From an uncultured Thermoplasmata archaeon (lineage in GTDB: Archaea > Thermoplasmatota > Thermoplasmata > RBG-16-68-12): DNA of 64,000 nt. Below, piece by piece: positions 38,271 to 64,000 of the stretch. The position numbers and the translations under genes are program-made. The DNA lies in NCBI GenBank assembly GCA_963768855.1, contig CAVYJM010000011.1, positions 32,001 through 96,000 of the forward strand, in the 5' to 3' direction. Within the stretch, counting starts at the first letter, position 1, and every line of letters starts with the position of its first letter. The notes below the pieces were generated by a model, which was not told where the DNA came from, did no database searches, and was given only the letters and a program-made list of their open reading frames with translations.

Positions 38271-38675
38271 ATGGCGCGCTTCACAACGGAGATGCAGATG
38301 CGGTTCCGGGACCTCGACGCCATGGGCCACGTCAACAACGCGGTCTACCTGTCCTACTGCGAACTCGCGCGCACCCAGTTCTACCTGAAACATGCGTTCA
38401 AGCGCTCCTTGCACGACATCGACTTCATCCTCGCCCATGTCGACATCGACTACGTCTCAGCGGCGGAGTGGGGCGACCAGGTCGAGGTGTCCGTCTGGCC
38501 TTCGAAGATCGGAGAGTCATCCTTCACGCTGAGCTACGAGCTCCGGGACAAGAAGTCGAACCGGCTCCTCGCGAAGTCCTCGAGTGTCCTGGTTTCCTAC
38601 GACTACGACAAGAAGCAGACGAAACCGATCCCGTCCGAGTTCCGCAAGATGCTCGAGGAAAACCTGGAAGCCTAA
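38271..38675 (+). CDS. Acyl-CoA thioesterase (4HBT/YbgC hotdog family)
   Basis: [19 protein letters not shown]. Confidence 0.92.
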
Positions 38676-45055: not shown

Positions 45056-46675
45056 TCAGGCCGCGTCCGCGTCCCAGACCTGATCCTTCTCCATCGCCCA
45101 CGCCGGGTACTCCTCGTTCCCGATGAAGTGTCTTGCGTAGAGCTCGGCGATGCGCTCGTAGCGCGGATTGCCGACCTTGGCAACTTGATGGAGCAGGGCC
45201 ACGGTGGCCGCGTCCGCGATCCGAGTCATGGCGTGCTTTGCATTCCAAGTGATTTCCTGCGTCGATCCGGTCAGCAGCATGCCGATCGCATCCTCCGCAG
45301 CCTTCCTCGCCATCCGCCCGGTCTCTCCGCCGACGGCATCCAGCTGCGGGAGCACGTCCTCGAGGAACGGCTCGTGCGCCTTCCACTTCTGGATACTCTC
45401 CAGGAAGTCGAGGGCCTGGATGTTGCTCGGTCCCTCCCAGATGGGCGTGATGAGGGCCTCGCGGTGCCACCTCGCGACCGCGTACTCCTCGAGGAACCCG
45501 AGGCCGCCGAAGAGCTCCATGGCCAGGGAGGTCATCGCGGCCGCATGTTCCGCGGTGCGGTTCTTCGCGAGGTGGATCAGGAAACGGGCGTAGTGGTACG
45601 CGCGTGAGTACGGCCTCCGTTCCTTCCACACGCGGTCGAATTGGTCCACCGCACGGAAGGCCAGAGCGAGTCCGCCGGCCGAGCGTACGGCCAGATCCGT
45701 TAGGTCGCGGCGGATCAGGGGATGCTCCTGCAGACGCTTCCCGAAGGCCTCCCGGCGCCGGACGCGCTCGAGGACCTCCAGGTGGGCCTTCTTCGCGGTG
45801 GCCATGGCGCCGATGGCGTTCGCGAGGCGCGACACGTTCAGGATTTCGAGGCTCAGGTACACCCCGTCCTCCTCGCGCTCCATGAGGTGAGCCTCGCTCC
45901 CGTTCAGGTCGACCTCGCCCGTGGGGACCGCCCGGGTGGCGCTCTTGTCCTTCAGGCGGCGGACCGTGAAGTTCAGCTTCCGGGACCGGTCGAGGCGGGG
46001 GACGAGGAAGAGGGCGAGGCCCTTGGCCCCCGCTCTCGCGCCCTCGGGCCGCGCGGTCACCAAGGCGTAGTCCGCCAGGCCTGCGCCGCTCGCGAAGTAC
46101 TTCTCCCCGGTGAGCCGCCAGACGTCGCCGTCCTTCCGGGCGACCGTGATGTTCGCCCCGAGATCGCTGCCGCCCTGGACCTCGGTCATCCAGGTGGCGC
46201 CGAACGCGTCGCCGGCCAGCATATCCTCTTTCCAGGCGGCGAAGGAGGGGGCGTACTTGTGGATGCCGTACACGGTCTGGTTTGTAATGGTCAGGACGCA
46301 ATAGAGACCTGGGTCGCCCAGCAGATAGCCCAGGGCGAAGTGGTGATGCCAGCTCCCGCCCTCGTAGGCAGGGCGGTTGATGTGCGCCGCGGCCTTGAGG
46401 ACGACGCGCTCCGCGGGACTCAGCCGAGCGCGGTCCACGCGCTGTCCGTCCAGGTCGTGCGTGACGAGGACCGGCGCCGCGTCATGGTCGACGTGGTAGA
46501 CGACCTCGTAGACGTCCTCGCCCGCGAAGGCGCCGAAACGGTGCAGCTCGTCGCGGTGCGCGGGGAAGTCCCGCCAGAAGGTCCCGAGGACCGCCGCGAG
46601 GTCCGGATCGCGGTCGAAGTGGTTCGTCCCGTACGCGTAGGAGAGCTCCCGAAAGGCGTCCCGGTCCCCCGCCAT
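45056..46675 (-). CDS. Acyl-CoA dehydrogenase (AidB-like)
   Basis: ATWMTEVQGGSDLG, LTGEKYFASG, RRLKDK, SRLANA, RREAFG, GGLGFLEEY, IWEGPSNIQ. Confidence 0.92.
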   Translation of the reverse strand: MAGDRDAFRELSYAYGTNHFDRDPDLAAVLGTFWRDFPAHRDELHRFGAFAGEDVYEVVYHVDHDAAPVLVTHDLDGQRVDRARLSPAERVVLKAAAHINRPAYEGGSWHHHFALGYLLGDPGLYCVLTITNQTVYGIHKYAPSFAAWKEDMLAGDAFGATWMTEVQGGSDLGANITVARKDGDVWRLTGEKYFASGAGLADYALVTARPEGARAGAKGLALFLVPRLDRSRKLNFTVRRLKDKSATRAVPTGEVDLNGSEAHLMEREEDGVYLSLEILNVSRLANAIGAMATAKKAHLEVLERVRRREAFGKRLQEHPLIRRDLTDLAVRSAGGLALAFRAVDQFDRVWKERRPYSRAYHYARFLIHLAKNRTAEHAAAMTSLAMELFGGLGFLEEYAVARWHREALITPIWEGPSNIQALDFLESIQKWKAHEPFLEDVLPQLDAVGGETGRMARKAAEDAIGMLLTGSTQEITWNAKHAMTRIADAATVALLHQVAKVGNPRYERIAELYARHFIGNEEYPAWAMEKDQVWDADAA

Positions 46676-46726: not shown

Positions 46727-47053
46727 TCAGAGCTCGGCCCACTTCCCGTAGCCCTCCCAGACGCGCACGTGGGCCGGGAACTTGAGCGCCTCCCCGAGGC
46801 GTTTTGATATGAGCTCCGCGATGTTCTCGACGGTCGGGTACTCGAGGAAGGTGTTCCAGTCCTTGTGGTCGTACTCCGATAGAACGGAGCGCGTGACCTT
46901 CTTCAGCTCGGCGAAGTCGAGGAGCATGCCTCCCTTGTGCTCCCCCTCGATGAACACGTCGACTTGGTACGTGTGCCCATGGAAGGAGCCGCAGCGTTCA
47001 TGCCCGGGGAGGTGGTGCGCGCAGTCGATGTACTCCGTGATGCCGAGCTTCAT
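46727..47053 (-). CDS. queD: 6-carboxy-5,6,7,8-tetrahydropterin synthase
   Basis: CAHHL, CGSFHGHTY, DFAELK, YDH, PTVENIA, VWEG. Confidence 0.92.
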   Translation of the reverse strand: MKLGITEYIDCAHHLPGHERCGSFHGHTYQVDVFIEGEHKGGMLLDFAELKKVTRSVLSEYDHKDWNTFLEYPTVENIAELISKRLGEALKFPAHVRVWEGYGKWAEL

Positions 47054-47140
47054 GGGCGCGCCCAAGGGGTCGACGGCCATAAAGGTTGGCGGGGGGCTCC
47101 TCCCGCTGACCGCATGCCGCGGACCCGGACGACGGGTGCC

Positions 47141-47476
47141 CTAGACGGGCGTCACGGTCAGGAACTTGAGGGCGTCCGCGCCGTGCTGGACGAACTGGTG
47201 CTCCTCGTCGTCCTCGACCAGCAAGACCACGCCGGGCCGGAGCGGAATCTTCTTCCCGTCCACGATCGCGAGGCCGCGGCCCGCCGTGACGACGAGCTCG
47301 TGTTCCCACTTGTGGCGGTGCGCCACGGAATACCCGCCCTTCCCGAAGACGAGCTCGTGCACGGAGGTGTGCCGGGCGCCGTCTTCGCGGCCGACGAGCT
47401 GCCGCATCCGGACGTTGTGGCTGCCCTCTTCCAAGAAGCGGACCGGGGCGACCGACCGAACGGTGGTCGTATACAT
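47141..47476 (-). CDS. Cupin-domain protein
   Basis: HRHKWEHE and EEHQF cupin motifs. Confidence 0.9.
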   Translation of the reverse strand: MYTTTVRSVAPVRFLEEGSHNVRMRQLVGREDGARHTSVHELVFGKGGYSVAHRHKWEHELVVTAGRGLAIVDGKKIPLRPGVVLLVEDDEEHQFVQHGADALKFLTVTPV

Positions 47477-47542
47477 TGGGGGGAGAGGGGAGGCGGGAGA
47501 CCGCATTAAGCTTTCGAGCGCCACGGCGCAATCGGCCCGCGC

Positions 47543-48196
47543 TCACTTCTCGTAGGGGACGGGATCCTCGAGCCCGAGGGCCGCAAACGCCTCCCGGCGC
47601 TCTCGGCAGGAGACGCAGGTGCCGCAGTGAACGTCCCGGTCCCAGTAGCAGGACCACGTGAGGCCGAACGGCACGCCGAGGTCCCGCCCCATCCGGAGGA
47701 CGTCCGCCTTGGACTTGCTGCTCAGCGGGACGACGACCTGCACGGGCGACCGGTCGAACGACCAGAGGCTCAGATGGAACATGCTGTTCAGGAACTCGAA
47801 GAATTTCGGGCTCGCGTCCGGGAAGGATTCTGGGTCGATGCCGTTGTGGCCCCCGACGAGGTACCGCGTGCCGTCCAGCTCCGCGTAGTACGCCGCGAGG
47901 CTGTAGAAGATCAGGTTCCGGGCCGGGATGTAGCCCTCCGGAGAATCCTCCAGGACGGGGTTCGCAAGTCCGCTCGACCGCAGGTCGTCGACCTCCTTGA
48001 GGAAGGGCAGCCCGACGGTCCGGACCGGCCGCACGCCCGCCTCCTTCACGAGGCCCTCGATCGCCGTGTGCTCGCGGCGGGGACGCCCGAAGTAGTCGAA
48101 CGTGAGCGGCTGGACGTCCCAGCCCTGCTTCTTCGTCCACCAGAGGGTGACGGCGGAATCGACGCCGCCGGAGAGAAGGACGATGGCGCGGTCCAT
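47543..48196 (-). CDS. queC: 7-cyano-7-deazaguanine (preQ0) synthase
   Basis: LLSGGVDS, FDYFG, YIPARNLIF, FPD, TWSCY..HCGTCVSC. Confidence 0.93.
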   Translation of the reverse strand: MDRAIVLLSGGVDSAVTLWWTKKQGWDVQPLTFDYFGRPRREHTAIEGLVKEAGVRPVRTVGLPFLKEVDDLRSSGLANPVLEDSPEGYIPARNLIFYSLAAYYAELDGTRYLVGGHNGIDPESFPDASPKFFEFLNSMFHLSLWSFDRSPVQVVVPLSSKSKADVLRMGRDLGVPFGLTWSCYWDRDVHCGTCVSCRERREAFAALGLEDPVPYEK

Positions 48197-48257
48197 CCGG
48201 GTTCGCGAACTCACCGGCCCGGCCCTATAAGGAGTTTGTCCACATGGGGGCGGCACC

Positions 48258-49349: not shown

Positions 49350-49438
49350 AGTCCGGAAAGGTCGTCTCCGGGCCAGCTTAAGAGGCCTTTTGCGTCATTA
49401 TCGCGCGGAGAAGGCAGCCGGGCTCCCAGGCGTGAGAA

Positions 49439-50218
49439 TCAGCTGTCCGTCCACCGCGGCTCGCGCTTCTCGAGGAAGGCCTGCACCCCCTCCTCCTTGT
49501 CCTTCGACGTGATCACGAGAGTGAACAGGGTCTGTTCATACCGGAGGCCCTGGTCCATCGGCAACCGGGTCGAAGCTTTCACGGCAGCCTTGGCGAGCCG
49601 CACCGCGACCATGCTCTTCGAGGCGATCTTCCCCGCGATCTCCTCGACGCGCTTGTCCAGGAGGGGATGCGCGACGACCTCGTCGACGAGCCCGATGCGC
49701 AGCGCTTCCTTGGCGTCGATCCGTTCGCCGCTCAGGGTGAGCTTGAGGGCCGTGCCCAGGCCGACGAGGCGCGGGAGCCGCTGGCTCCCGCCGCCCCCTG
49801 GCATGATTCCGATGTTGACCTCCGCCTGGCTGAAGAGGGCCCGCTCGGAGGCGATCCGGACGTCGCAGGCCAAGGCGACCTCGAGGCCCCCGCCGAAGCA
49901 GTAGCCATCGATGCGCGCGAGGATTGGCTTCGCCATCCGGTCCACCGCCTCGTAGACGCTGCCCCGCCGCTCCAGGTCCGCCTGCTCGACGAGCCCCCGT
50001 CCCTGGAACTCCTGGATGTCCGCACCCGCGATGAACGACCGGTCTCCCGCGCCCGTCAGCACGACGACGCGGACCGTGGGATCCGCGTCGAGCCCGTCGA
50101 GGACGCGGATGAGCTCGCCCTTCATCTCGAGGGACATCGCGTTGTGCTTCTCCGGCCGGTTGAGCGTCACGACCGCGATCGGCCCGCGGCGCTCCACGAG
50201 GACGAGGGACGAGGCCAT
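49439..50218 (-). CDS. Enoyl-CoA hydratase/isomerase (crotonase)
   Basis: LNRPEKHNA, FIAGADI, GGGLEVALACD, QAEVNIGIMPGGGGSQRL, AFLEKR. Confidence 0.94.
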   Translation of the reverse strand: MASSLVLVERRGPIAVVTLNRPEKHNAMSLEMKGELIRVLDGLDADPTVRVVVLTGAGDRSFIAGADIQEFQGRGLVEQADLERRGSVYEAVDRMAKPILARIDGYCFGGGLEVALACDVRIASERALFSQAEVNIGIMPGGGGSQRLPRLVGLGTALKLTLSGERIDAKEALRIGLVDEVVAHPLLDKRVEEIAGKIASKSMVAVRLAKAAVKASTRLPMDQGLRYEQTLFTLVITSKDKEEGVQAFLEKREPRWTDS

Positions 50219-50325
50219 GAGATCGGCTGCGGGGAGGACGGCCGCGGATTTTAGGCCTTCCGAACAAATCAACCTTGTTTAAGGTTGACTGGTCCTAGGC
50301 GCGGCGGTCCGCGGGTGGCGCCCTT

Positions 50326-50805
50326 TCAGAGGAGCTTGTCCATGGTCAGGACGGTCGTCTGGAACCCGAGCTTCTTCCAGAACTCGACGCTCATGGCGTT
50401 CTTCGTGTCCGTGGCGACGCGCACCCGACTCACGCGCTTCTCCCCGAACCATCCGAGGGCGGCGGCCACCATCGAGCGGCCCACTCCCTTGCCGCGGTAG
50501 GGTTCCTGGACGTAGACCGCGGAGATGTGGCCGTACTTCCGCTCCATGAAGATTCCGGGCGGCTGCTCAAGGGAGGCGAGTAGGAATCCGGCCGGCTTCC
50601 CGCCGACCTCGGCGATCTGTGCCACGCGGTTCCGCGTACCGAGGAAAGAACGCAGGTGCCTCTCCCACTGCTCGGGCGCCCCCGTCGCGAGCCGGAAGTC
50701 CTGTCCCCCTAGGCTCTCGTCGAATCCGATCAGCTCGCGCCAGAGGCGGATGAGCTGCGGGAGGTCGTCCGCTTTCGCCGGATGAACCCGGAGGTCGAGG
50801 GCCAT
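50326..50805 (-). CDS. GNAT family N-acetyltransferase
   Basis: ISAVYVQEPYRGKGVG, FWKKLGF. Confidence 0.92.
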   Translation of the reverse strand: MALDLRVHPAKADDLPQLIRLWRELIGFDESLGGQDFRLATGAPEQWERHLRSFLGTRNRVAQIAEVGGKPAGFLLASLEQPPGIFMERKYGHISAVYVQEPYRGKGVGRSMVAAALGWFGEKRVSRVRVATDTKNAMSVEFWKKLGFQTTVLTMDKLL

Positions 50806-50869
50806 GTTCCCGCGCTACGCCCGTCCGGGGGCTAAAAGCCTCGGTCTATTCCGTTCCGGGCGGCGCGAC

Positions 50870-51658
50870 TCACTTGCCCTGGAACTGCGGCTTGCGCTTC
50901 TCGAGGAAGGCCTTGAAGCCCTCCTTCGCGTCTGCCATGGAGAACAGCCTGTTCTGGAGTTCGCGCTCGAGCGCGAGGCCCTCGTGGAGCGGGACCTCGA
51001 TCCCTTCGGCGACGGATCGCTTGATCAGGCCGACGGCTCGCGCGGCATGGTTCGGGTACGCCAGGCCCTGGGCGAATGCCATCGTCTCCTCCCAGAACTT
51101 CTCCCTCGGGAAGACGCGGTTCAGGATGCCCCACTCGAGGGCCTCCTTCGGGGAAAGGGTGCGGCCCGTCGTCATCAGGTCAATCGCGCGGCTCTTGCCG
51201 ATGAGCCGCGGGAGGCGCTGGGTTCCGCCGGTCCCTGGGAGTACGCCCAGGGTCACCTCAGGCAACCCGATCTTCCAAGCCCCGTCCGAAGCGAAGCGGA
51301 GGTCCGCGGCGAGGGCGATCTCCAGGCCGCCTCCGACGCAGTGCCCGTCGATTGCTGCGATGAAGAGCTTCGGGGTGGACTCCATCTTGTTGAGGACCTC
51401 CTGGCAGTTCAGGCAGAACATCGCCTTGTACTCCGGCGTGGAGGTCGCGAGGAGGTTGATGTCTGCGCCCGAGGACCAGATCCCGTCGAGCTTCGAGGCG
51501 AACACGCAGAGGTCGATCGAGTCGTCGAAGCGCACCTCGTCGATCACGTTGCTGATGTCCCGCATGAGATCCGTGTCGTACGTGTTCATCTTCGGCTTGT
51601 TGAACCATGCGACGGCCACGCGGTCCTTCTTCTCCAAGGACATGTAGGTGAGGTCCAT
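50870..51658 (-). CDS. Crotonase-fold enzyme resembling the N-terminal domain of benzoyl-CoA-epoxide/dihydrodiol lyase BoxC
   Basis: MNTYD..VRFD..SSGADI..YKAMFC; GGGLEIALA; LPEVTLGVLPGTGGTQRL; directly downstream of the BoxB-like gene. Confidence 0.8.
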   Translation of the reverse strand: MDLTYMSLEKKDRVAVAWFNKPKMNTYDTDLMRDISNVIDEVRFDDSIDLCVFASKLDGIWSSGADINLLATSTPEYKAMFCLNCQEVLNKMESTPKLFIAAIDGHCVGGGLEIALAADLRFASDGAWKIGLPEVTLGVLPGTGGTQRLPRLIGKSRAIDLMTTGRTLSPKEALEWGILNRVFPREKFWEETMAFAQGLAYPNHAARAVGLIKRSVAEGIEVPLHEGLALERELQNRLFSMADAKEGFKAFLEKRKPQFQGK

Positions 51659-51733
51659 CAGCTGCCCCTCGTCGCGTCCTATGATTGCGGCTTGTAATAA
51701 AGGATGGCCTATCCATGCGACGGCGGAGCGAAT

Positions 51734-53155
51734 TCAGGGGGCCGGCCGATGCACAGGCTCCGGCTCTCCCCACTTGTCGTTGAACAGGAACTCGTCCTTC
51801 ACGAACTGCCAGTGGCGGCTCGTCATGTATCGTTCCGGCAGGACGGTCTTGAGGTAGTCTGCGTAGTCCTGCCGCTCGATCGGCTTCCCGTCGTGGGTGA
51901 GCAGACTCCCGCGGACGTCGTACGGGAGGTACACGTAGCCCACGCCAGGCGAGTCGCTGCCCACGTTGCGGAAGTCTCCGTATTCCTGCAGGCCGCGGAT
52001 CCGGAAGAACCGCCGATCCGGCAGGAGCACGAGGTCGTCCTTGGTCATGCCGTGGAGCGTCTCGCCCGCCTCGAGCCGTGCCAGGACGCGCTTCGCCTCC
52101 TCCCGCGTGCAGCGGGCCTTCGAGGCGATCATTGCGAGGTTCACGTCCTCGACTTTGCCCTGCACCTCGGCGATGTAGATCGCCTGCGCTTCGCCGTTCG
52201 TCAGGGTCTTGAAGACTCCCTTGACGAGGCCTCCGCCGAGCTCGGAGCCGAACATCTCGAGGCCGCGGGGGTACCACATGTTGATCGTCCGCTGGAGATC
52301 CTCCACGCCGAAGTTGCCCCCGTCGTGAATGGCGGCCGCCCCGATCGCCTTCATGAGCGTCTCGCCGGCGGCGAGGTGGTACGACTCCTCCTTCCACCGC
52401 ATCCACGGCATGGAGACGGCCATGGGGCCGTACAGGAAGTGGTGCTGCATCTCGAGCTGGAACTTCCCGACGCGGTCGATCAGGCTCATGAACGTGGCGG
52501 AGTCCATGATGCTCTTGAACTCGATGTTGAAGGCGTCGAGCACGTGCTCGCCCGGCTTCATCGCGAAGAGCTCCTCCAGCGTCTCCGTGGCCCAGTGGTG
52601 TCCCCACCGCGCGCGGTCGAAGCTCGCGTCGAGGGTGAGGACGCCGGCCATCTGCATGTGGTGCCGCAGCTCCTCGACGCACACACGCTTCTTCGAGAAG
52701 GAGATCGCGTCGAGGCGGTGTCCGGTCGGGTCCGTGCGGTGCATGCCTTCCACGATCTCCCGGTCCAGGCCGTTCAGGGATCCGGAGTCGAGCTGCTCGT
52801 AGACCATGCGGTGCTGCTGGATGGACGCCAGTTCCGTGGACGCCTGGGCGCGGATGATCTTGAGCGCGGTCATGTACTGGCTGTCGGGCATGTCGTCGGC
52901 CTTCCAGACCCGCGTGGAGAGGTCGGCCGTTGCGTCCGTGGCCCCGACGACCTTGCGTGCGAAGTCCGCGAAGCCGTCGGGCTTTGCGAGGACGCAGGTC
53001 AGGAGCGGCATCGGCGTCGCCGGATAGTAGCGGGACCAGTTCGCCTCGTCGAGGACGACGGGCATCTCGGGGAAATACGATTCCTGCCAGGCCCGCCCCT
53101 CCTCCTGCCACTTCTTCGGCAGGGGCTCCATCCGGAACTGGTCGAGGAGGGCCAT
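51734..53155 (-). CDS. boxB: BoxB-like benzoyl-CoA 2,3-epoxidase (soluble diiron, ferritin-like)
   Basis: IIRAQASTELASIQQ, VEELRH, VLDAFN, DRVGKFQL, EESYH, WYPRGLEMFG; 473 aa from ATG 53155. Confidence 0.82.
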   Translation of the reverse strand: MALLDQFRMEPLPKKWQEEGRAWQESYFPEMPVVLDEANWSRYYPATPMPLLTCVLAKPDGFADFARKVVGATDATADLSTRVWKADDMPDSQYMTALKIIRAQASTELASIQQHRMVYEQLDSGSLNGLDREIVEGMHRTDPTGHRLDAISFSKKRVCVEELRHHMQMAGVLTLDASFDRARWGHHWATETLEELFAMKPGEHVLDAFNIEFKSIMDSATFMSLIDRVGKFQLEMQHHFLYGPMAVSMPWMRWKEESYHLAAGETLMKAIGAAAIHDGGNFGVEDLQRTINMWYPRGLEMFGSELGGGLVKGVFKTLTNGEAQAIYIAEVQGKVEDVNLAMIASKARCTREEAKRVLARLEAGETLHGMTKDDLVLLPDRRFFRIRGLQEYGDFRNVGSDSPGVGYVYLPYDVRGSLLTHDGKPIERQDYADYLKTVLPERYMTSRHWQFVKDEFLFNDKWGEPEPVHRPAP

Positions 53156-53242
53156 CGACCCGAACAATAGAGGTCCCGACGGATGAATCTTTCCGGGTCG
53201 CTCCGAGAATTCGGTTTGCCGAAATGGGCACCCGGCCGCAAT

Positions 53243-53998
53243 CTAGCGGGGCGCGAGGACCGCGATGTAGTCCCCGGGCGCGTACCCGCCTCCCCAGATG
53301 ACCCGCGCGAGTTCCCAACCGCTCTGGTGGGCGATCCTCGCGAGGTCCTCGGGGGACTGGAGCAGCAGGTCGAACCAGTCGCCCACATGGCCTTTGTACC
53401 GGACCCGCAGGGTGAGGAGCCCAGGCGGTCGGCCGCGCGCAATGTTCCGCTTCACATACGGGAGATGGTCCACGGACCAGGTGCCGGGGAGCTGGCTGTG
53501 GCCGACGAGCCGGCCTCCGCGACGAATCGCCGGGGCCAGGCGGCGGAAGAAGTCGCGCATGTGGGGCACGTCGCCCGCGAGTCCGAGGTTGTTGCCGAGC
53601 AGGAGGACCGTGTCGAACGTCCCGAGGCCCGCCGGGATCCGGCGGACGTTGCCGAGGTACACCTCCTGCACGCCCCGGATTCGCGCGAGGGCGACCTGCG
53701 TCGGCGACGCGTCGAGCCCGACGACGGCGTGGCCTTTGGACTGCAGGTAGAGCGCGTGGCGGCCCGGACCGCACCCGAGGTCCAGGACGCGTCCGCGGAC
53801 CTCCTTCATCGCCTCCCGCTCCATCCGCGGCCACTGGTTCGCCGTGCCGAAGTACGAGTGGAGCGCGGACAGGCTCCGGTACCCGTCCTCCCGCTCGAAC
53901 TCCACGCGGACGCGCTTGCCCATCCAGAAGTCCAGCATCGCCTGGGCGTAGAGCTCGAAGGACGATCCGGGTGGCGCCTTACTCCCGCGGCGGGGCAT
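53243..53998 (-). CDS. Class I SAM-dependent methyltransferase
   Basis: RVLDLGCGPGRH, GLDAS, FDTVLLLGNNLG. Confidence 0.9.
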   Translation of the reverse strand: MPRRGSKAPPGSSFELYAQAMLDFWMGKRVRVEFEREDGYRSLSALHSYFGTANQWPRMEREAMKEVRGRVLDLGCGPGRHALYLQSKGHAVVGLDASPTQVALARIRGVQEVYLGNVRRIPAGLGTFDTVLLLGNNLGLAGDVPHMRDFFRRLAPAIRRGGRLVGHSQLPGTWSVDHLPYVKRNIARGRPPGLLTLRVRYKGHVGDWFDLLLQSPEDLARIAHQSGWELARVIWGGGYAPGDYIAVLAPR

Positions 53999-54128
53999 GG
54001 AAGCCGCGCGGGGATGGGCACCCCGGCTACATGACCTTTCTGCCCCGGCGGACGCGGCGCAGCTACAAGATAACCGCATGCGGCAAACTTTATCCGGGCG
54101 ACGGGCGTGAGGTCGCGGGGGAGCCGCC

Positions 54129-54275
54129 ATGGCCCGCACGCGCCGGGAATCGAAGTTCGAGGTGTTCGGGGAGGAGATGCTCGAGAAGGTGGTCGCCAAG
54201 AGCGGCAGCTCGGGGCGCGTCTACCTCCCGCCCGACTGGATCGGGAAGCGGGTCAAGGTCATCCGGGTCGATTGA
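54129..54275 (+). CDS. DUF2080-family small archaeal protein (swapped-hairpin/AbrB-like), missed by the ORF track
   Basis: Manual translation MARTRRESKFEVFGEEMLEKVVAKSGSSGRVYLPPDWIGKRVKVIRVD*. Confidence 0.85.
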   Translation: MARTRRESKFEVFGEEMLEKVVAKSGSSGRVYLPPDWIGKRVKVIRVD

Positions 54276-54282
54276 GGGGACG

Positions 54283-55347
54283 ATGGCCGGCTCGAGGTGG
54301 GGACCGAGAGGGATCGCGGGCTGCGCGCGGTGCGGGAGCCGCCGCGTCCACCCCAAGCTCCTCGTCATGGGACCGGTCCCCGGGATCGACAGCGACGCGT
54401 ATTCCTACATCTGCGAGGACTGCCACTACGAGGGCATGCCGGTCATCTTCGACACGGACGAGCAGCGCGCCCAGTTCGAGAAGGAGATTCGCGAGCGGGG
54501 ACACGCGCCGCCCGAGAAGCCCCTGAAGACCGCCCCGAGCATCCCGATCCTGCCCGTCTACACGAAGCCCCTCCTGGACGTCCCCCTCCTGGACCAGCTG
54601 CCCATCCACGCCGCAGCGGTCGTCGGCGTCCGCTGGGACGGGACGCGTCTTCAGCCAAACGGATACCGGACGTCCTTCCCGGAGTACTGGAACGTGATTG
54701 GCGGCTCGCGCTACAACGCGTCCCTCCTGTACATGCTGGACCTGAGCGGGATCGAACGGGGGAACCCGAACTTCGACGTGATGCGGCATCTCGTGAAGCG
54801 GTGCGACGTCTGGCTCGACCTCGGCGCCCGGGACTCCGACGACATCATGGACGGTTACATGCTCGATGTCGAGCGCGTCGTCGCGGGGACCAAGACCCTG
54901 CCCTCCCTCGACGCGTTCGTCGAGGCATACGCGCTCTCCCCGGCGGTCCTGCCCTGCCTCGACTGGGACGGCCAGATCGTGTGGGGCGACCCGCGCGAGC
55001 GGCGCAGAGATCTGTCGGAGGTCCTGGGATCTCTCCGGGCCATCGGGTTCGAGGCGGTGTGCGTGATGGACCTCCGGCGCCTTGGAACGGAGCAGGGACC
55101 GGACCCCGCGCTCGTCTCGCTTCTGCAGGGATCCGATCTGTCCGTGTACCTCGGCGGCGGCGTGCAGGAGACGGACATCACCGGGCTCAAGGAGAAGGGG
55201 TTCGCTGGAGGGCTCGTCGACCCGTACACCCCGGTCATCCGGAACCTGCTCCTGCCCCCCAAGCCCGAAGGGCCGGCGCCCGCGTCGACGCCGGAGACGG
55301 TCGCCCGCCCCGCGCCCTCCTCGCGCGCCGTGCCGGACGCAGGCTGA
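54283..55347 (+). CDS. Zinc-ribbon plus HisA/HisF-like TIM-barrel protein
   Basis: CARCGS...CEDCHY; LYMLDLSGI, VWLDLGAR, VVAGT, VMDLRRLGT..GPD, YLGGGV. Confidence 0.75.
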   Translation: MAGSRWGPRGIAGCARCGSRRVHPKLLVMGPVPGIDSDAYSYICEDCHYEGMPVIFDTDEQRAQFEKEIRERGHAPPEKPLKTAPSIPILPVYTKPLLDVPLLDQLPIHAAAVVGVRWDGTRLQPNGYRTSFPEYWNVIGGSRYNASLLYMLDLSGIERGNPNFDVMRHLVKRCDVWLDLGARDSDDIMDGYMLDVERVVAGTKTLPSLDAFVEAYALSPAVLPCLDWDGQIVWGDPRERRRDLSEVLGSLRAIGFEAVCVMDLRRLGTEQGPDPALVSLLQGSDLSVYLGGGVQETDITGLKEKGFAGGLVDPYTPVIRNLLLPPKPEGPAPASTPETVARPAPSSRAVPDAG

Positions 55348-57941: not shown

Positions 57942-59666
57942 CTACGCGGACTTGGAAGAGGCCTTCGCGGCGGCGACCTCCCGCTCCCGAAGCTCCCGCC
58001 GCAGGACCTTGCCCACCATCGTCTTCGGAAGCTCCTTCTCGAAGGCCACCTGTTTCGGAACCCTGAACGGCGCGAGCTTCCCCTTGCAGAAGGCGATGAT
58101 CTCCTCGGCGGTCGCGGTCCCCCCCGGCTTGAGCACCACGTACGCCTTCACGCTCTCGCCGCGGTACGGGTCCGGGATGCCGATCACCGCGGCCTCCTGG
58201 ACCGCAGGGTGCATGTAGAGGACCTCCTCGACCTCGCGGGGGTACACGTTGTAGCCCGAGCAGAGGATCATGTCCTTCTTGCGGTCCACGATGAAGAAGT
58301 AGCCGTCCTCGTCCATCTTCGCGATGTCGCCGGTGAGGAGCCAACCGTCGTGGAGGACATTCGCGGTCTCCTCGGGCTTGTTCCAGTACCCTTTCATCAC
58401 CTGCGGCCCGCGAATCGCGAGCTCGCCGACGCCACCCTGGGGCACATCCTTCGACGCGTCGTCCACGTCCACGATCTTCGAATCCGTGTCGGGCCACGGG
58501 ATGCCGATCCCCTCCTTGATGAGGCCCTCCAGGGGGTTCGCATGGGTTACGGGGGATGCCTCGGTGAGGCCGAAACCCTCCACCAGCTTCCCGCCCGTCA
58601 CCCGCTCGAACTCGTGGCGCACCTCGTTCGGAAGGGGAGCCGAACCGGACACACAGGCCTTGATCGACCTCAGGTCGTACTTCGAGAGCTTGGGATGGCG
58701 GAGGATCGCGATGTACATCGTCGGAACGCCGGGGAAAAGCGTCGGGCGGCGCTTGTTGATCAGTTTGAGGATCACGTTGATCTCCCGCGGGTTCGGGTGG
58801 AGGATGACCTCCGCGCCATCCGCCACGGCCGCCGTCATCACCGTCGTCAGGCCGTAGACGTGGAACAGCGGGATCACCCCTAGGATGCGCTCCTGCTCCG
58901 TTCGCCTCCAGGGCAGCCACGCGTTGTCTTGGAGGGCGTTCGCGACCAGGTTCCTGTGGGTCAGCATGGCGCCCTTCGGGACGCCCGTCGTACCGCCTGT
59001 GTACTGGAGGACGGCCACGTCCTCCGACGGTCGCACGGGGGGCTCGGAGCCCGGCCGGGGGGTGGCGCGGACGAAGTCGCGGTAGCGATGGACCCAGGAG
59101 GCCTGGGGGATCTCGAGGGGCCAGTGGCCCTCCTTCTTCAAGTCCCCCCGCTTCCGGATGGGATAGAGCTGGCGCAGGGGGAATGGCAGGAAATCACCCA
59201 CGTCGCACAGGATGACGTTCGACACCCGGGTCTTCGGCTTGGCCTTCGCCAGGTTGGGCCAAAAGATGTCCAGCGCCACGACGGTCTCCACGCCCGCGTC
59301 GTTGTAGAGGTACTCGAGCTCCCGCGGCGTGTAGAGGAAGTTGGTCTGTACGACGACGCCGCCGGCGCGGAGCGTCCCGAAGAACGCGACAAAGAAGTGG
59401 GGCGTGTTGGGGAGCATCAGGGACACGCGGTCCCCGGGCTTCACCCCGAGCCCCCGCAGTCCGGCGGCGAAGCGGTCCGCGAGCTCGTCGAGCTCCCCGT
59501 AGGTGGTTCGCTTTCCGAAGAACACCATCGCGGTCCAGTCCGGATGCTCCTTGGCGGTCCGCCGCAACAGCTCATGCACCGCGATCTCGGGATACTCGAT
59601 GTGCTTCGGCACGCCCTCAGGCCAGTGCTTGTGCCAGGGCTTCGGCAGAATGGCCTCTGCTTGCAT
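57942..59666 (-). CDS. Long-chain-fatty-acid/aryl CoA ligase (AMP-binding)
   Basis: QYTGGTTGVPKG, EGFGLTE, WLLTGD, DRKKDMI, PKTMVGK. Confidence 0.95.
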   Translation of the reverse strand: MQAEAILPKPWHKHWPEGVPKHIEYPEIAVHELLRRTAKEHPDWTAMVFFGKRTTYGELDELADRFAAGLRGLGVKPGDRVSLMLPNTPHFFVAFFGTLRAGGVVVQTNFLYTPRELEYLYNDAGVETVVALDIFWPNLAKAKPKTRVSNVILCDVGDFLPFPLRQLYPIRKRGDLKKEGHWPLEIPQASWVHRYRDFVRATPRPGSEPPVRPSEDVAVLQYTGGTTGVPKGAMLTHRNLVANALQDNAWLPWRRTEQERILGVIPLFHVYGLTTVMTAAVADGAEVILHPNPREINVILKLINKRRPTLFPGVPTMYIAILRHPKLSKYDLRSIKACVSGSAPLPNEVRHEFERVTGGKLVEGFGLTEASPVTHANPLEGLIKEGIGIPWPDTDSKIVDVDDASKDVPQGGVGELAIRGPQVMKGYWNKPEETANVLHDGWLLTGDIAKMDEDGYFFIVDRKKDMILCSGYNVYPREVEEVLYMHPAVQEAAVIGIPDPYRGESVKAYVVLKPGGTATAEEIIAFCKGKLAPFRVPKQVAFEKELPKTMVGKVLRRELREREVAAAKASSKSA

Positions 59667-59795
59667 GTCCTCCCCTTCTCGGTGCGGAATCGTCTCCTGA
59701 GGCATTAAACATCGTCCCGCCTGTCCAAGGCGATTGCCGTCGGTCGACGCGAAACGATTATGCGGTGCAGCTCCCTCGGAGACGGCGGCGCACCC

Positions 59796-60561
59796 ATGCC
59801 GGAAGACGCACGAATCGAAGTGGCTCGCGAGGGCCCCGTCGCGGTCCTATTCCTCCATCACCCGCCGAAGAACCGGCTCACGCAGGCGATGATTCAGCAG
59901 CTCTCCGGCCATGTCGGGGCCATCGAGAAGGACGGCAGCGCAGCTGGCCGTCGTCGTTGCAGGAGCGGGAGGGCACACGTTCTGCGAGGGCCTCGATGCC
60001 ACGGAGTGGTCGGCCCTTTCCCCGAAGGACGCGCAGTCGGCCCTCCAGCGCGGGTTCGAGGCACTGTGGGCCCTCGAGCACCTGACGAAGCCCACGATTG
60101 CAGCCATCGAGGGCGGTTGCCGGAGCATCGGAGCGGAACTGGCCCTGGCCTGCGACCTCCGGTTCGCCTCGGAGACCGCGACGTTCGCGTTCCCGGAGAT
60201 CGACCAGGCCTGGATGCCGAGCCATGGGGGGACCGCGCGGCTGCCGCGGATGATTGGTCGGTCCCGGACCCTGGAGCTCTTCCTAACGGCGGCCAACGTC
60301 GACGCTCGAGAGGCCGCCAAGCTTGGCTTCGTGGAACACGTCACGAAACCCGGGGAGGCGATGACAAAGGCGCTCGCCCTGGCCAGTGCCTTCGCCGAGG
60401 AACCCCGCACGGCGGTCCATGCGATCAAGCGCGCGCTGACCGAGGCCGAGGAGAAACCGTACCGCAATCGGTTCCTCCTCGAAGCGCAGCACTCCGTGCA
60501 GCTCCTGTGGACGGACGCGTACCGCGAGGCCCAGGAGAAGGCGCGCCGCAAAAGCCCCTAG
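59796..60561 (+). pseudogene. Enoyl-CoA hydratase-like gene interrupted by a +1 frameshift near 59940 (or an assembly error)
   Basis: N-terminus (MPEDARIEVAREGPVAVLFLHHPPKNRL) is in one frame; the rest (VVVAGAGGHTFCEGLD...GAELALACD...FPEI) is in the +1 frame. Confidence 0.8.
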
Positions 60562-60982: not shown

Positions 60983-61690
60983 TCACTGCTTGTACGCTTT
61001 CGCGATCGCCCACACGGTGAGCGGGTAGCCCTTTGGGTCCACGTTGTCGATGATCTCGTGCAGGACCTCGCGTGCCTTCGGCTTCGGCAGGCTTCCGAGG
61101 AATGTGCGCTTCTTGTGCGTCTTCATCCACTCACGGAACTCGTCCTGCTTCGTGACATACAGCGAGCGGACCGTCTTGTCGACGAACTGGACGCCGGACT
61201 TCGTGCCGATCTGGTCCGCATCGTAGTCGCGCTGGAGGAACTCGAAGAAGAACCACTCGTCGTCGAGGAGCTCCCGCGAGAAGCATTGGAGCAGCGGCCC
61301 GAAGGAGTCCTTGTCCTGGTAGATCGGTGTGAGGAACTCCGCGCCCTTCTTCTCCAGGTACGCCCGGAACTTCACGATGTCCGTCGTGCGGAGGGCGAGG
61401 TGTTGGATGTACGTCTTGGCCTCCCCTGCCGGCTTCCCATCGAACCCGAACTTGAACGGCGCCTGGCCCTGCGAGACTTCGTCGGGGGCGTCGATCCCGA
61501 AGACCATCGCGATCCGCTCGTTCGTGTAGGGGTGGTGGAAGGCGGAGGTCGCCATCCCCGTCTTCTCCTCGCCGACCCGCGGCGTCTCGTAGACGACGCG
61601 GTAGCCGTCGCTGACGAGGAAGTCCCGCAGGTTGTTGAACACGGTCATGTCGCGCACGAGCACGGTCTTGTGGTCCGGCTTCAGCTTCAT
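60983..61690 (-). CDS. Single-domain VOC protein resembling the catalytic C-terminal half of 4-hydroxyphenylpyruvate dioxygenase
   Basis: PDH, IQHLALRTTDI, LLQCFS, FFFEFLQR facial-triad-like His/His/Glu; sits downstream of FAH. Confidence 0.72.
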   Translation of the reverse strand: MKLKPDHKTVLVRDMTVFNNLRDFLVSDGYRVVYETPRVGEEKTGMATSAFHHPYTNERIAMVFGIDAPDEVSQGQAPFKFGFDGKPAGEAKTYIQHLALRTTDIVKFRAYLEKKGAEFLTPIYQDKDSFGPLLQCFSRELLDDEWFFFEFLQRDYDADQIGTKSGVQFVDKTVRSLYVTKQDEFREWMKTHKKRTFLGSLPKPKAREVLHEIIDNVDPKGYPLTVWAIAKAYKQ

Positions 61691-61793
61691 GAATTCCGGG
61701 ACGGCCAATTGGATCCCCAGGCCGCGCATTGTCGGGCGATGTCCATAACCCTTGCGTGGTTGGATTTCGCATGACCGAAAATCGCACGGCGAT

Positions 61794-62804
61794 TCACGAG
61801 GTTCGCGCGATCGGGTTCGTGAGGATGCCGACTCCCTCGACCTCGAGCTCGACGATGTCCCCCGGGACGAGGTACGCCGCGGCATCGCCCTTTTCGAACT
61901 CGCACCCGCCGGGAATCGTCCCGCTCCCCCAGACCTCCCCCGCATGGACGGCCTGGCTCGCCGCGAGGAACGTGCCGAGTTCCTCGAACGACCAGGCGGC
62001 TCGCTGGCCCGCTTCGATCAGCGGGTTGCGGGTCACGAGGGTGCGGAGCCGGCCTGCGAGGCGCTGCACGCCGTTCACGCGGACTGCGACGCGCTGGTCG
62101 CGGAGGGCGCCGAACTCATCGCGCGTGACGACGCACGGGCCCAGGGCGTTCGCCCAGTCCTTCCCCACGGCGGGGCCCATCCCGACCCGCCCCGCGAGGG
62201 ACTGCAGGTCGCGCATCGAGAAGTCGTTGAAGATCGTCACCCCGAACAGGGACGGAGGGCCGCGGGTCCGGTCCGCGGTCGGGCCGACCACGTACCCGAT
62301 CTCCAGCTCGTAGTCGAGCTTCTGCGACGCGGTCTGGCTCCAGGTGCCGCCCTCGAAGGTCGCGAAGGTGGGGAACGGGACCGGTTCCCCGGGGCCCAGG
62401 AGGTTGAGCGCGTCCCCGTTGTAGTAGGCCGGGACGCGGTCCCACTCGGGGGGCACGCGGTCGCCGCGGGCGGCCCGGGTCCGCGCAATGTGCCCCCGGA
62501 AGGCGATGAAATCCCGCAGCAGCCGGGGCCACAGGGGTGCATGCAGGCGCACGCGGGCGGGATCGTGCGCGTAGGCGGGCCGGGACCGCGCGACGGCTCG
62601 CTCCGCCCGCCGCACGGCCGCCGTGGCCCGCCGCCATGCGCCTCCGGACAGGGTTCCGGCTGAATCGAGGAACGTGAGCATGTCGGAGGGCAGACGACGG
62701 TCCAATGCGTGCAGGTCCACGATCGTCTCCCATGCGTCCCAGGGGCCGAGGGCGGCACCCAGGCGCTCCGCCTCGCGCCCTCGCGAAAAGGTGAGGAGTC
62801 TCAT
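61794..62804 (-). CDS. Fumarylacetoacetate hydrolase family protein
   Basis: LLRDFIAFRGH, PAYYNG, LDYELE, IFNDFSMRD, GKD, GSGT, VELEVEGVGILTN; ATG at 62804. Confidence 0.92.
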   Translation of the reverse strand: MRLLTFSRGREAERLGAALGPWDAWETIVDLHALDRRLPSDMLTFLDSAGTLSGGAWRRATAAVRRAERAVARSRPAYAHDPARVRLHAPLWPRLLRDFIAFRGHIARTRAARGDRVPPEWDRVPAYYNGDALNLLGPGEPVPFPTFATFEGGTWSQTASQKLDYELEIGYVVGPTADRTRGPPSLFGVTIFNDFSMRDLQSLAGRVGMGPAVGKDWANALGPCVVTRDEFGALRDQRVAVRVNGVQRLAGRLRTLVTRNPLIEAGQRAAWSFEELGTFLAASQAVHAGEVWGSGTIPGGCEFEKGDAAAYLVPGDIVELEVEGVGILTNPIARTS

Positions 62805-63472
62805 GGGCCCCCACTCCCTAGGAGGCTCGTCCACGGCACCGGCGCTCCCTGCGACCGGCAGAGCGGACAACCCGCGGGCGCGAAGACCGGGATCTCCGCG
62901 CGGAGGGCGCTGTAGAAGCGGCCACCGAGGGTCGCCTCGGTCTCCGCAACCTTGGGCGCGGTCCCCTTGACGAAGACGGCGGCCGCCACGCGGGTCCCGC
63001 CGAGGCGCTCCACGAATTCGGGGAGGCGCTCGCCGACGCACCGCCCGGTGTGGCTCACCCCGTTGAGGACGAGCGCCCGGGCCCCGCGTTCGAGGCGTCC
63101 CTCCACGAGGCGGTCCCCGAATCGGCCGCTCGGGAGGTACTCCCAGTAGGCCGCGGGTCGCCCGACCGAACTGGCCACGGCGTCCGCGAGGACCCGGACC
63201 GCCGGCTGCGCGGGGGCGAACAGGACGTCGAACTCGATGTGCTCGCGGTCGATCCAAGCGACCAGATCCTCCCGGATCCAGTCGACGAAGCGCGGGTCCG
63301 CGGTCACCGGTTCCAGGAGGAAGAACCCCTGGAGATGGTTCCCCCGCTCGTCCGCGGGGTACCGATAATGCCCGTCCGGGTGGAACGGCCTCGCCGTGCG
63401 GAGGACTCTCTCGAGGTGTTCGCGCGGGAACGTCGCGGAGGTCGCGGTCAGCCGCTCGCCCAGGGAGTCCAT
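62801..63472 (-). CDS. Type I phosphoribosyltransferase-fold protein with a degenerate PRPP loop
   Basis: PyrE-like GHY...GNH, ALVLNGVSHTG (normally VVDDVxxTG), C-terminal CPLC; ATGA-coupled to FAH. Confidence 0.75.
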   Translation of the reverse strand: MDSLGERLTATSATFPREHLERVLRTARPFHPDGHYRYPADERGNHLQGFFLLEPVTADPRFVDWIREDLVAWIDREHIEFDVLFAPAQPAVRVLADAVASSVGRPAAYWEYLPSGRFGDRLVEGRLERGARALVLNGVSHTGRCVGERLPEFVERLGGTRVAAAVFVKGTAPKVAETEATLGGRFYSALRAEIPVFAPAGCPLCRSQGAPVPWTSLLGSGGP

Positions 63473-63485
63473 CGTCCCGCCCCGG

Positions 63486-64000
63486 TCACGCGCTCGGGGA
63501 TTCCCATCCCGGGCCCGCGGCCTGCTCGGGTGCCCGGGCGTCGGACCAGCTCAGGACATACTCCGGGTCGCGGAACGCCCAGCCGTCCGTCGTGATGCGC
63601 ATGCTCTCGAAGTACGTGTCGAGCATGACCGCAAGGCGGGGCGAGACCGTGCCCCGGTCCGCGAGGGACCTCGCCGCGGCCTGGCCCTGCGGGCTGTGGG
63701 GCGTGGCCCCGGGGTGGAACGTGAACGAGCCCTCTTCGATCACTCCCTTGCGGGCCTCGTAGGCCATGTTGCAGAAGAACATGAGTTCGTCGCTGTCGAC
63801 GTTGAAGTGCGCGTAGGGCGCGGGCACCTCCTTGGGATTCCAGCCCTGCATGACGGGCACGAAGGAGCACAGGGAGAAGCCGTTGCTCGGCACGTTCCCG
63901 GACTGGAACGTCTGGTGCATCGGCGGCGCGGTGTGGATCTCCCGCGCGATCCCGTGGTGGCGGTGGATGTCGAAGAGGAACGGGTAGAGGGCGCCCTCCC
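63486..64000 (-). CDS. hmgA: Homogentisate 1,2-dioxygenase (3' part; runs off the window)
   Basis: IHTAPPMHQTF, CSFVP, PAPYAHFNVDSDE, FHPGATPHSP; open frame to the window edge. Confidence 0.85.
   Translation of the reverse strand, partial: EGALYPFLFDIHRHHGIAREIHTAPPMHQTFQSGNVPSNGFSLCSFVPVMQGWNPKEVPAPYAHFNVDSDELMFFCNMAYEARKGVIEEGSFTFHPGATPHSPQGQAAARSLADRGTVSPRLAVMLDTYFESMRITTDGWAFRDPEYVLSWSDARAPEQAAGPGWESPSA

Follow-up and report, generated by a model that had tools for sequence, protein, structure and literature searches.

The "hybrid" aerobic route for aromatic acids is defined by two diiron enzymes, BoxB and PaaA, which are to our knowledge the only characterised diiron enzymes that epoxidise coenzyme A (CoA) esters. 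The former is the oxygenase component of the benzoyl-CoA 2,3-epoxidase of Azoarcus/Aromatoleum evansii (PDB 3PER and 3PM5; TIGR03225), the latter is a subunit of the PaaABCE phenylacetyl-CoA 1,2-epoxidase of Escherichia coli (PDB 3PW1 and 3PVR; TIGR02156), and a further relative, SSO1313 of Sulfolobus solfataricus (PDB 4MUD), is a short PaaA/BoxB-like protein whose function is unpublished. BoxB is a monomer for which catalytic traces of BoxA suffice, and it depends on BoxC for relief from product inhibition (PMC4498308). The present study concerns a diiron protein related to these enzymes, hereafter T, whose gene is followed by that of a crotonase on a 64,000-nt stretch (referred to as a whole as the window) of contig CAVYJM010000011.1 from a soil/wetland Thermoplasmata archaeon (assembly GCA_963768855.1).

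T falls in a distinct family, so far uncharacterised, whose sister group comprises BoxB and BoxB-like proteins, and a single crotonase orthogroup goes with two diiron lineages in more than one phylum. By analogy with BoxB, T is probably (ca. 60%) an O2-activating diiron oxygenase that would act on a CoA thioester, with a dedicated two-glutamate crotonase handling its product. No paper on BoxB in Thermoplasmata, on a benzoyl-CoA epoxidase in archaea or on SSO1313 was found in the literature.

Family placement and active site of T

T scored below every curated family threshold searched, with 26.9 bits on the BoxB model TIGR03225 (residues 161-309 only; cut-off 499.1), 17.9 bits on the PaaA model TIGR02156 (cut-off 280) and 21.5 bits on the Pfam model PaaA_PaaC, PF05138 (cut-off 28.5). 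As reference values, a bacterial member of the T family (L092) reached 64 bits on TIGR03225 and a true BoxB (P0261) 672 bits. When the PDB was searched with a profile of the T family, BoxB came first with a match over nearly the full length (E 3e-22), ahead of SSO1313 (4MUD; 2e-18) and PaaA (5e-6). The same ranking was obtained with an AlphaFold (AF2) model of T built from a 69-sequence alignment (predicted local distance difference test, pLDDT, 92.6), an earlier AF2 model from 20 close sequences having been discarded (pLDDT 63). In Foldseek the top match of the model was BoxB (template modelling score 0.55), and with VIA-align residues 1-446 of the model were superposed on BoxB 5-434 with Z 27.6 and a root mean square deviation of 3.1 Å over 341 residues, compared to Z 22.7 for SSO1313 and 20.9 for PaaA. 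The model displays the BoxB fold with its N- and C-terminal extensions.

Maximum-likelihood trees, one of them a quick one, were rooted on PaaA-like sequences, this rooting being an assumption. The short SSO1313-type proteins branch first, followed by a split (99/97) between BoxB together with BoxB-like proteins (100/100) and the T family (100/100), so that T lies outside the BoxB clade, in a sister clade on a long branch. T is therefore not BoxB itself but a member of a family of its own that stands on the BoxB side and not on the PaaA side. The sequence-only reading, which had presented the protein as a divergent BoxB, was right as to the diiron type and the side of the tree; the identification with BoxB did not survive the separate clade and the score of 26.9 bits against a cut-off of 499. 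Within the family, the Thermoplasmata sequences are monophyletic (100/100) with a long stem and are nested (97/93) among those of Cellvibrio, Myxococcota and Planctomycetia, a topology that would fit one old transfer of T from bacteria to archaea.

In BoxB, the diiron site is formed by E120, E150, H153, D211, E240 and H243, and benzoyl-CoA is positioned by a second shell composed of Q116, T119, S123, F193, F203/F206 and T210, in which Q116 binds the thioester, F193 and F206 sandwich the phenyl ring and T210 sets the regio-selectivity (PMC5489048). The motifs of T occur in BoxB order, with STELAS at 106, VEELRH at 160, DRVGKFQL at 227 and EESYH at 256, and the putative iron ligands E108, E162, H165, D227, E257 and H260 align, in that order, to those of BoxB. 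None of the six varies among 30 aligned members from archaea and bacteria. In the second shell, T keeps five residues out of seven, namely Q104, T107, S111, F209 and F222 (BoxB Q116, T119, S123, F193 and F206). Beyond the ligands, Q104, T107, S111, F209, N210 and K231/Q233 are invariant in the 30 sequences and F222 is nearly so; the catalytic residues are all under strong purifying selection.

The linker between helices B and C of T (MVYEQ...SFSKK) comprises 40 residues, 117-156, which HMMER aligns to 16 in BoxB, in agreement with the lengths first proposed. This length is due to an insertion of ca. 28 residues, at about 123-150, that is found in the Thermoplasmata clade only and in no bacterial member of the 30-sequence alignment. 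The linker had been put forward as a clue to a substrate other than benzoyl-CoA, and an insertion private to one archaeal clade says little on this point.

Overall, T (473 aa) and BoxB are of about the same length, are collinear over nearly the whole chain and share a ferritin-like core with N- and C-terminal extensions as well as the motifs QQ(R)H, AFN and DRxGKFQL. They differ by an identity of only ca. 22%, by the 28-aa archaeal insertion, by Ile and a small residue in place of BoxB T210 and F203, and by the lack of a BoxA/BoxC/boxD context around T. SSO1313-type proteins, the second-best match to T by structure and by profile, have the diiron core and its motifs but are only 235-292 aa long, lack the N-terminal ca. 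45 and C-terminal ca. 125 residues of T, pass the Pfam PaaA_PaaC threshold (119 bits) and branch outside BoxB and T. PaaA shares the superfamily and the ligand set, and its pathway also continues with a crotonase-fold enzyme, PaaG (PMC4498308); its match to T is much weaker by all scores. PaaA needs PaaB, PaaC and PaaE, and the genome encoding T has no second gene of the PaaA/PaaC family. The absence of a PaaC-type subunit gene is consistent with a BoxB-like independence from such a subunit.

The crotonase and its pairing with diiron genes

The crotonase scored 182.6 bits, over threshold, on PF00378 (ECH_1). It contains the motifs MNTYD (24), VRFD (42), SGADI (63) and YKAMFC (77), and its catalytic glutamates are E113 in GGGLE and E134 in LPEV. 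No equivalog cut-off was met in NCBIfam, where the best model was the generic enoyl-CoA hydratase (ECH) NF005803 (206.6 bits, cut-off 313), compared to 123 bits for PaaG and 86 bits for BoxC TIGR03222. With a profile of the crotonase orthogroup, the PDB ranking was headed by 2PPY, a plain ECH, with 345 bits, PaaF and PaaG followed with 219 and 166 bits, and BoxC (2W3P) came at about rank 42 with 159 bits. The nearest relatives are short-chain enoyl-CoA hydratases and 3-hydroxypropionyl-CoA dehydratase (2PPY, 5ZAI).

Two catalytic glutamates are found in PaaF and in the active N-terminal domain of BoxC, and one in PaaG (PMC4498308). The crotonase, which has two, differs in this from PaaG and, judging from its sequence, is of the ordinary two-glutamate hydratase type and no relative of BoxC. 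Resemblance to BoxC is limited to the crotonase fold, to two glutamates placed as in the active N-terminal domain and to the position beside a BoxB-type gene; BoxC is a two-domain protein of ca. 550 aa and the crotonase has a single domain of 262 aa. The designation "half-size BoxC" in the sequence-only reading is therefore left without sequence support, since the protein groups with ordinary hydratases on both comparisons, an outcome which that reading had itself named as counting against it; a BoxC-like role is still compatible with the data. In an orthologue from Planctomycetota, located beside an aldehyde dehydrogenase (ALDH) gene and T (L068:5592-6383), the first catalytic glutamate is replaced by Val (GGGLVIAM), and this copy may be an isomerase-type or otherwise altered enzyme.

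The crotonase gene follows T in ca. 20 archaeal loci, all belonging to one close clade (76-87% identity). The block shared by this clade is made of genes for a FadD-type ligase, AlkZ, a deaminase, a hydrolase, a HisA-like protein, a methyltransferase, T, ECH, GNAT, ECH, a membrane protein, QueC, a cupin, QueD and an acyl-CoA dehydrogenase (ACAD). The gene order across Thermoplasmata, proposed earlier as a check, thus confirms the adjacency but only within one close clade, and local synteny is by itself weak evidence for a unit.

A second pairing and the co-occurrence of the genes support a real functional association. Full-length T was present in 6 genomes of a 151-genome Thermoplasmata sample, and 13 genomes of family f16 have instead a 275-292-aa relative of the SSO1313 type, which shares 29% identity with T and matches PF05138 with 119 bits and 4MUD with E 1e-35. 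In 12 of these 13, an orthologue of the crotonase (58-63% identity, compared to 30-40% for paralogues) lies immediately upstream of the short diiron gene on the same strand, the two forming a module amid unrelated genes; the short form here occupies the place beside the crotonase that T holds in the window. The crotonase is present in all 19 genomes with either diiron form and in 3 of the 132 without, and the two forms never occur together in any of the 151 genomes. In Planctomycetota (81 genomes), an orthologue (46-53% identity) was detected in 13 of 16 genomes with a non-canonical PaaA/BoxB-like gene versus 11 of 65 without, and was absent from the two genomes with canonical PaaA/PaaC. Two further loci, one from Planctomycetota (ECH-ALDH-T; L068) and one from Blastocatellia (L074), have crotonases of 47-52% identity no more than a few kb away from T. 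A prediction of a 1:1 complex of T and the crotonase gave a score of 0.00, which carries no weight either way.

One genome of family f16 (G023) has a long T (71% identity; C9:680-2074) and an f1-like crotonase (81%; C28:8815-9600) in place of the short module of its relatives, which could reflect lateral replacement or contamination of the bin.

Genome content, window genes and contexts elsewhere

The source assembly (2.87 Mb, 93.6% complete) was searched as a whole. For BoxA (TIGR03224), the best score was 38 bits on the ferredoxin part only (cut-off 459); for two-domain BoxC (TIGR03222), it was the 86 bits of the adjacent crotonase, covering model positions 38-230 (cut-off 712); and for benzoate-CoA ligase (TIGR02262), it was 266.7 bits, below the cut-off of 375.25. 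T is the sole PF05138-like locus, with neither a second PaaA/PaaC-family gene nor a canonical Paa set in the assembly. The earlier reading had named a canonical set elsewhere as what would make the locus ordinary; none having been found genome-wide, the canonical Box pathway is excluded for this genome. Next to T, neither BoxA nor BoxD was seen, the BoxD family model not having been used in the search. Two FNR-type modules lie on other contigs, and the genome encodes COX1 (529 bits), which indicates an aerobic organism, and the alpha subunit of indolepyruvate:ferredoxin oxidoreductase (IOR_alpha, 732 bits), an enzyme that could supply arylacetyl-CoAs directly, without a ligase.

The features of the window are listed below. 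Spurious open reading frames (ORFs) are frequent in the window because of its GC content of 67%, and genes were called by GC content at third codon positions (GC3) and by translation. Both ORFs of the pair were present exactly as first read, with the same lengths, coordinates and motifs.

Table. Position and strand of T, the crotonase and other features of the window
Feature	Position	Strand	Remarks
T (diiron protein)	51734-53155 (53155->51734)	minus	473 aa from ATG
Crotonase	50870-51658 (51658->50870)	minus	262 aa, single domain, both catalytic Glu
T-crotonase spacer	51659..51733	minus	75 bp
GNAT acetyltransferase	50326..50805	minus	159 aa, between the two crotonases
Second crotonase	49439..50272	minus	277 aa as called; generic short-chain ECH/PaaF-like scores
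Class I SAM methyltransferase	53243..53940	minus	directly upstream of T; start codon uncertain
CoA ligase, FadD-type	57942-59705	minus	long-chain fatty-acid type
Third crotonase	ca. 59911-60561	plus	
AidB-like acyl-CoA dehydrogenase	45056-46675	minus	
4HBT thioesterase	ca. 38322-38561	plus	

A TTG occurs four codons upstream of the ATG of T but is unused in orthologues, which start with MALLDQF. The spacer, in a genome of 67% GC, contains TTTATTA ca. 39 nt before the ATG of the crotonase, possibly a TATA box giving this gene its own promoter. The GNAT gene, whose product is 27% identical to a bacterial GNAT of locus L084, may or may not belong with the pair. The second crotonase is 32% identical to the first, and the methyltransferase gene keeps its place upstream of T within the close clade only (231 aa for the orthologue in L001).

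The CoA ligase, further crotonases, thioesterase and acyl-CoA dehydrogenase that had been attributed to the window are all there, but the surrounding genes do not make up an aromatic pathway: the ligase is of the FadD type, and QueC, QueD and GNAT genes are interspersed. A QueC, a cupin and a PTPS/QueD-like gene, related to the synthesis of the 7-deazaguanine/archaeosine precursor, stand at 46727-48256(-) between the crotonases and the acyl-CoA dehydrogenase, so that the minus-strand run is not one coherent catabolic operon. At 8-11 kb from T, the window contains a homogentisate-pathway cluster (60983-64000(-)) with a match to the C-terminal part of HgmA (63486-63920) and a weak HPPD-like match (60983-61945); FAH is found in the syntenic locus L001, and the cluster travels with the syntenic block in close relatives.

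DNA nearly identical to window positions 49400-54300 was found in wetland and freshwater-sediment metagenomes of several studies (runs X1-X9), six runs holding at least half of the sampled words from this region. Contigs of a wetland metatranscriptome (X14) include four short pieces of 95-99% identity, one in the crotonase, two in T and one in the methyltransferase; none spans the T-crotonase spacer and DNA carry-over is possible, so that these pieces do not demonstrate co-transcription.

More than 2,400 proteins match T in a set of 5.8 billion, the top 120 being 64-100% identical proteins of Thermoplasmata metagenome-assembled genomes (MAGs) that pipelines name "hypothetical", "PaaA" or "BoxB". 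When 1.84 billion cluster representatives were searched exhaustively with HMMER, only 155 reached E<=1e-3, and the weakest among them are either true BoxB (672 bits) or BoxB-like (205-339 bits). A GTDB scan gave 401 relatives with identities of 58-87% in Thermoplasmata and 33-39% in bacteria, the bacterial holders being Planctomycetota, Myxococcota, Acidobacteriota/Thermoanaerobaculia, Chloroflexota/Limnocylindria and, for the Cellvibrionaceae, Cellvibrio fontiphilus and Marinagarivorans. One contig labelled Bathyarchaeia (L085) carries a T that nests among those of Limnocylindria (Chloroflexota) and matches their loci over its entire neighbourhood, and is likely mis-binned or the result of a very recent transfer.

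In other archaeal clades, T lies beside saccharopine dehydrogenase, radical-SAM or ALDH genes, and flanking genes in bacteria and other archaea encode proline dehydrogenase, a P5C dehydrogenase-like protein, a betaine-aldehyde dehydrogenase-like protein and threonine dehydrogenase. GNAT genes are directly upstream of T in nine bacterial loci. In Planctomycetales, the genes downstream of T are housekeeping ones: BioB and Tdh each pass the family cut-off, and Nfo passes that of the nfo subfamily; the ALDH beside T was considered as BoxD and rejected on its betaine-aldehyde-dehydrogenase-like score. Likewise, a MqnC/CofH-like radical-SAM neighbour in Planctomycetia was set aside, being restricted to close relatives and suggesting no mechanism.

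In Cellvibrio and Marinagarivorans, T stands in a tidy operon (L092:4333-15234, from the cultured Cellvibrio fontiphilus KCTC 52237, and L075) composed of LysR, a nitroreductase, a 459-aa crotonase with an insertion of ca. 200 aa, T, a halogenase/monooxygenase-like flavoprotein (CmlS/LodB-like), a 1118-aa FAD-oxidoreductase fusion and a metallo-beta-lactamase (MBL) hydrolase. In Cellvibrio, the FAD-oxidoreductase is fused to a benzoate-CoA-ligase-family domain (312 bits on TIGR02262, below the cut-off of 375.25), T being located between the crotonase and this domain. For experiments on the family, this operon of C. fontiphilus offers the best starting point.

Three kinds of small module were also seen directly behind T in other clades. 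These correspond to a 70-aa CxxC...CxxC ORF overlapping the T stop codon in some Thermoplasmata (L037:9383-9595(+), L038:4102-4314(+)), to an 88-aa Nfu_N-domain protein behind T in Planctomycetales (L066:3439-3708, L068:9255-9521) and to a C-terminal tail GxCPCSKSVRW of T itself in Acidobacteriota and Chloroflexota (L072, L076, L078, L079). All three may be electron-transfer or metal-delivery accessories; a search of the genome under study for relatives of the Cys-rich 70-aa ORF, the Nfu_N protein and the CPC tail found none. At a single locus, in a Limnocylindria MAG, T is directly followed by a 240-aa PaaA/PaaC-like ORF (L083:9306-10028(+); TIGR02156 92.6 bits), possibly a structural-subunit-like partner.

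Proposed function, alternatives and significance

The substrate and the reaction, as well as the source of electrons and the succession of steps, are proposed here by analogy with BoxB. On binding of the acyl-CoA to T, Q104, beside ligand E108, would hold the thioester, and the acyl group would lie above the diiron site with T107, S111, F209, F222 and I226 around it. The diiron site would be reduced by two electrons, supplied by a donor encoded elsewhere, perhaps a ferredoxin or an FNR-type protein; O2 would be activated, and insertion of one of its atoms would give an epoxide or a hydroxyl. The two-glutamate crotonase encoded next to T may then add water to the reactive product or otherwise remove it, in a role comparable to that of BoxC for BoxB and of PaaG/PaaZ for PaaABCE, and the product could enter beta-oxidation-type steps. 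As to the substrate, the chances of an aromatic CoA ester, for instance an arylacetyl- or aroyl-CoA, are put slightly below even, and a non-aromatic unsaturated or branched acyl-CoA is a serious, if somewhat less probable, candidate.

Several observations weigh against a CoA-thioester oxygenase with a dedicated crotonase. No member of the T family has a known substrate or activity, no reductase is linked to T and the CoA ligase found nearby belongs to the type for long-chain fatty acids. In the pocket, BoxB T210 is replaced by Ile226, invariant in the T family, and F203 by a small, variable residue at T position 219. The sequence of the crotonase is that of an ordinary short-chain hydratase, its synteny with T is limited to one closely related archaeal clade and the 75-bp spacer may hold a separate promoter for it; T lies in unrelated contexts in other archaeal clades and in most bacterial ones, and the crotonase occurs in 11 Planctomycetota genomes devoid of any detected diiron relative. 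The Fisher values for co-occurrence (2e-6 and 2e-21) are upper bounds that overstate the significance, since the genomes counted are related and not independent.

That T is functionally tied neither to the crotonase nor to CoA esters, the adjacency being synteny inherited in one clade and T oxidising some other small molecule or being a non-catalytic ferritin-like protein, would account for the unrelated contexts of T in most lineages, for a crotonase orthogroup spread more widely than T (24 versus 4 of the 81 Planctomycetota genomes) and for a possible separate promoter in the spacer. This is nevertheless highly improbable when set against a crotonase paired with two diiron lineages in two gene orders, the mutual exclusion of T and the short form, the co-occurrence in two phyla, the purifying selection on all catalytic residues and the invariant Q104, whose equivalent binds the thioester in BoxB. 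A reduced Box pathway, in which benzoyl-CoA or a substituted aroyl-CoA would be epoxidised by T and its ring opened hydrolytically by the crotonase as half of a BoxC, finds support in BoxB being the closest characterised protein by profile, fold and tree, in the benzoyl-holding pocket residues being mostly kept, and in only the N-terminal domain of BoxC being catalytic, with the same two glutamates as the crotonase (PMC4498308). The crotonase also has the top score of the genome's crotonases on the BoxC model (86 bits), aromatic amino-acid catabolism is represented 8-11 kb away by the homogentisate cluster, and a benzoate-CoA-ligase-family domain occurs in the Cellvibrio operon. Such a pathway appears distinctly unlikely in view of the separate clade and low TIGR03225 score of T, of a crotonase for which BoxC ranks only ca. 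42nd, below PaaF and PaaG, of a genome with no BoxA, BoxC or benzoate-CoA ligase above cut-off, and of the replaced regio-selectivity residue.

The crotonase's closeness to short-chain hydratases and 3-hydroxypropionyl-CoA dehydratase speaks for another alternative, in which T hydroxylates, desaturates or epoxidises a short, branched or unsaturated acyl-CoA and the crotonase performs a normal hydration, T then being an O2-dependent branch of beta-oxidation-type metabolism. The FadD-type ligase, second ECH and AidB-like acyl-CoA dehydrogenase nearby, the proline, P5C-like, betaine-aldehyde-like and threonine dehydrogenase genes that flank T elsewhere and the lack of an aromatic ligase above cut-off in the genome point the same way. 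Conversely, F209 and F222, the counterparts of the phenyl-sandwiching pair of BoxB, are conserved, the only characterised relatives, BoxB and PaaA, both use aromatic CoA esters, and an aryl-CoA-ligase-like domain is present in the Cellvibrio operon; as a whole this alternative is considered unlikely. The reading of T as a BoxB-like oxygenase of CoA thioesters served by its crotonase is favoured by the kept iron ligands, in line with the diiron motifs first read, and by most of the substrate-positioning residues, by the fold and the tree, by the second pairing and the co-occurrence, by the Cellvibrio operon, by the precedent of BoxB and by an aerobic organism with IOR_alpha.

A bolder proposal, on balance doubtful, is that T and the crotonase constitute a minimal two-enzyme, O2-dependent CoA-epoxide module by which aerobic Thermoplasmata and many soil bacteria would dearomatise arylacetyl- or aroyl-CoAs that 2-oxoacid:ferredoxin oxidoreductases produce directly. 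A general ferredoxin would take the place of a dedicated BoxA/PaaE reductase, and a hydratase of one domain that of BoxC. If true, Archaea would have gained, in a single acquisition from bacteria, what would be their first aerobic aromatic route through CoA epoxides, and in family f1 the module would be a functional replacement of the short SSO1313-type enzyme.

The sister placement to BoxB, the conserved second shell, the archaeal-only insertion and the association of one crotonase orthogroup with two diiron lineages are what is added here. They are of use for annotation, as members of the T family are currently labelled "hypothetical" or wrongly PaaA or BoxB while they are neither. T represents a third well-conserved family beside BoxB and PaaA, with an intact active site, no dedicated reductase and a recurring single-domain hydratase partner. 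The family offers a testable handle on how widespread and how minimal such chemistry can be, and bears on the use of O2 by abundant uncultured Thermoplasmata of soils and wetlands.

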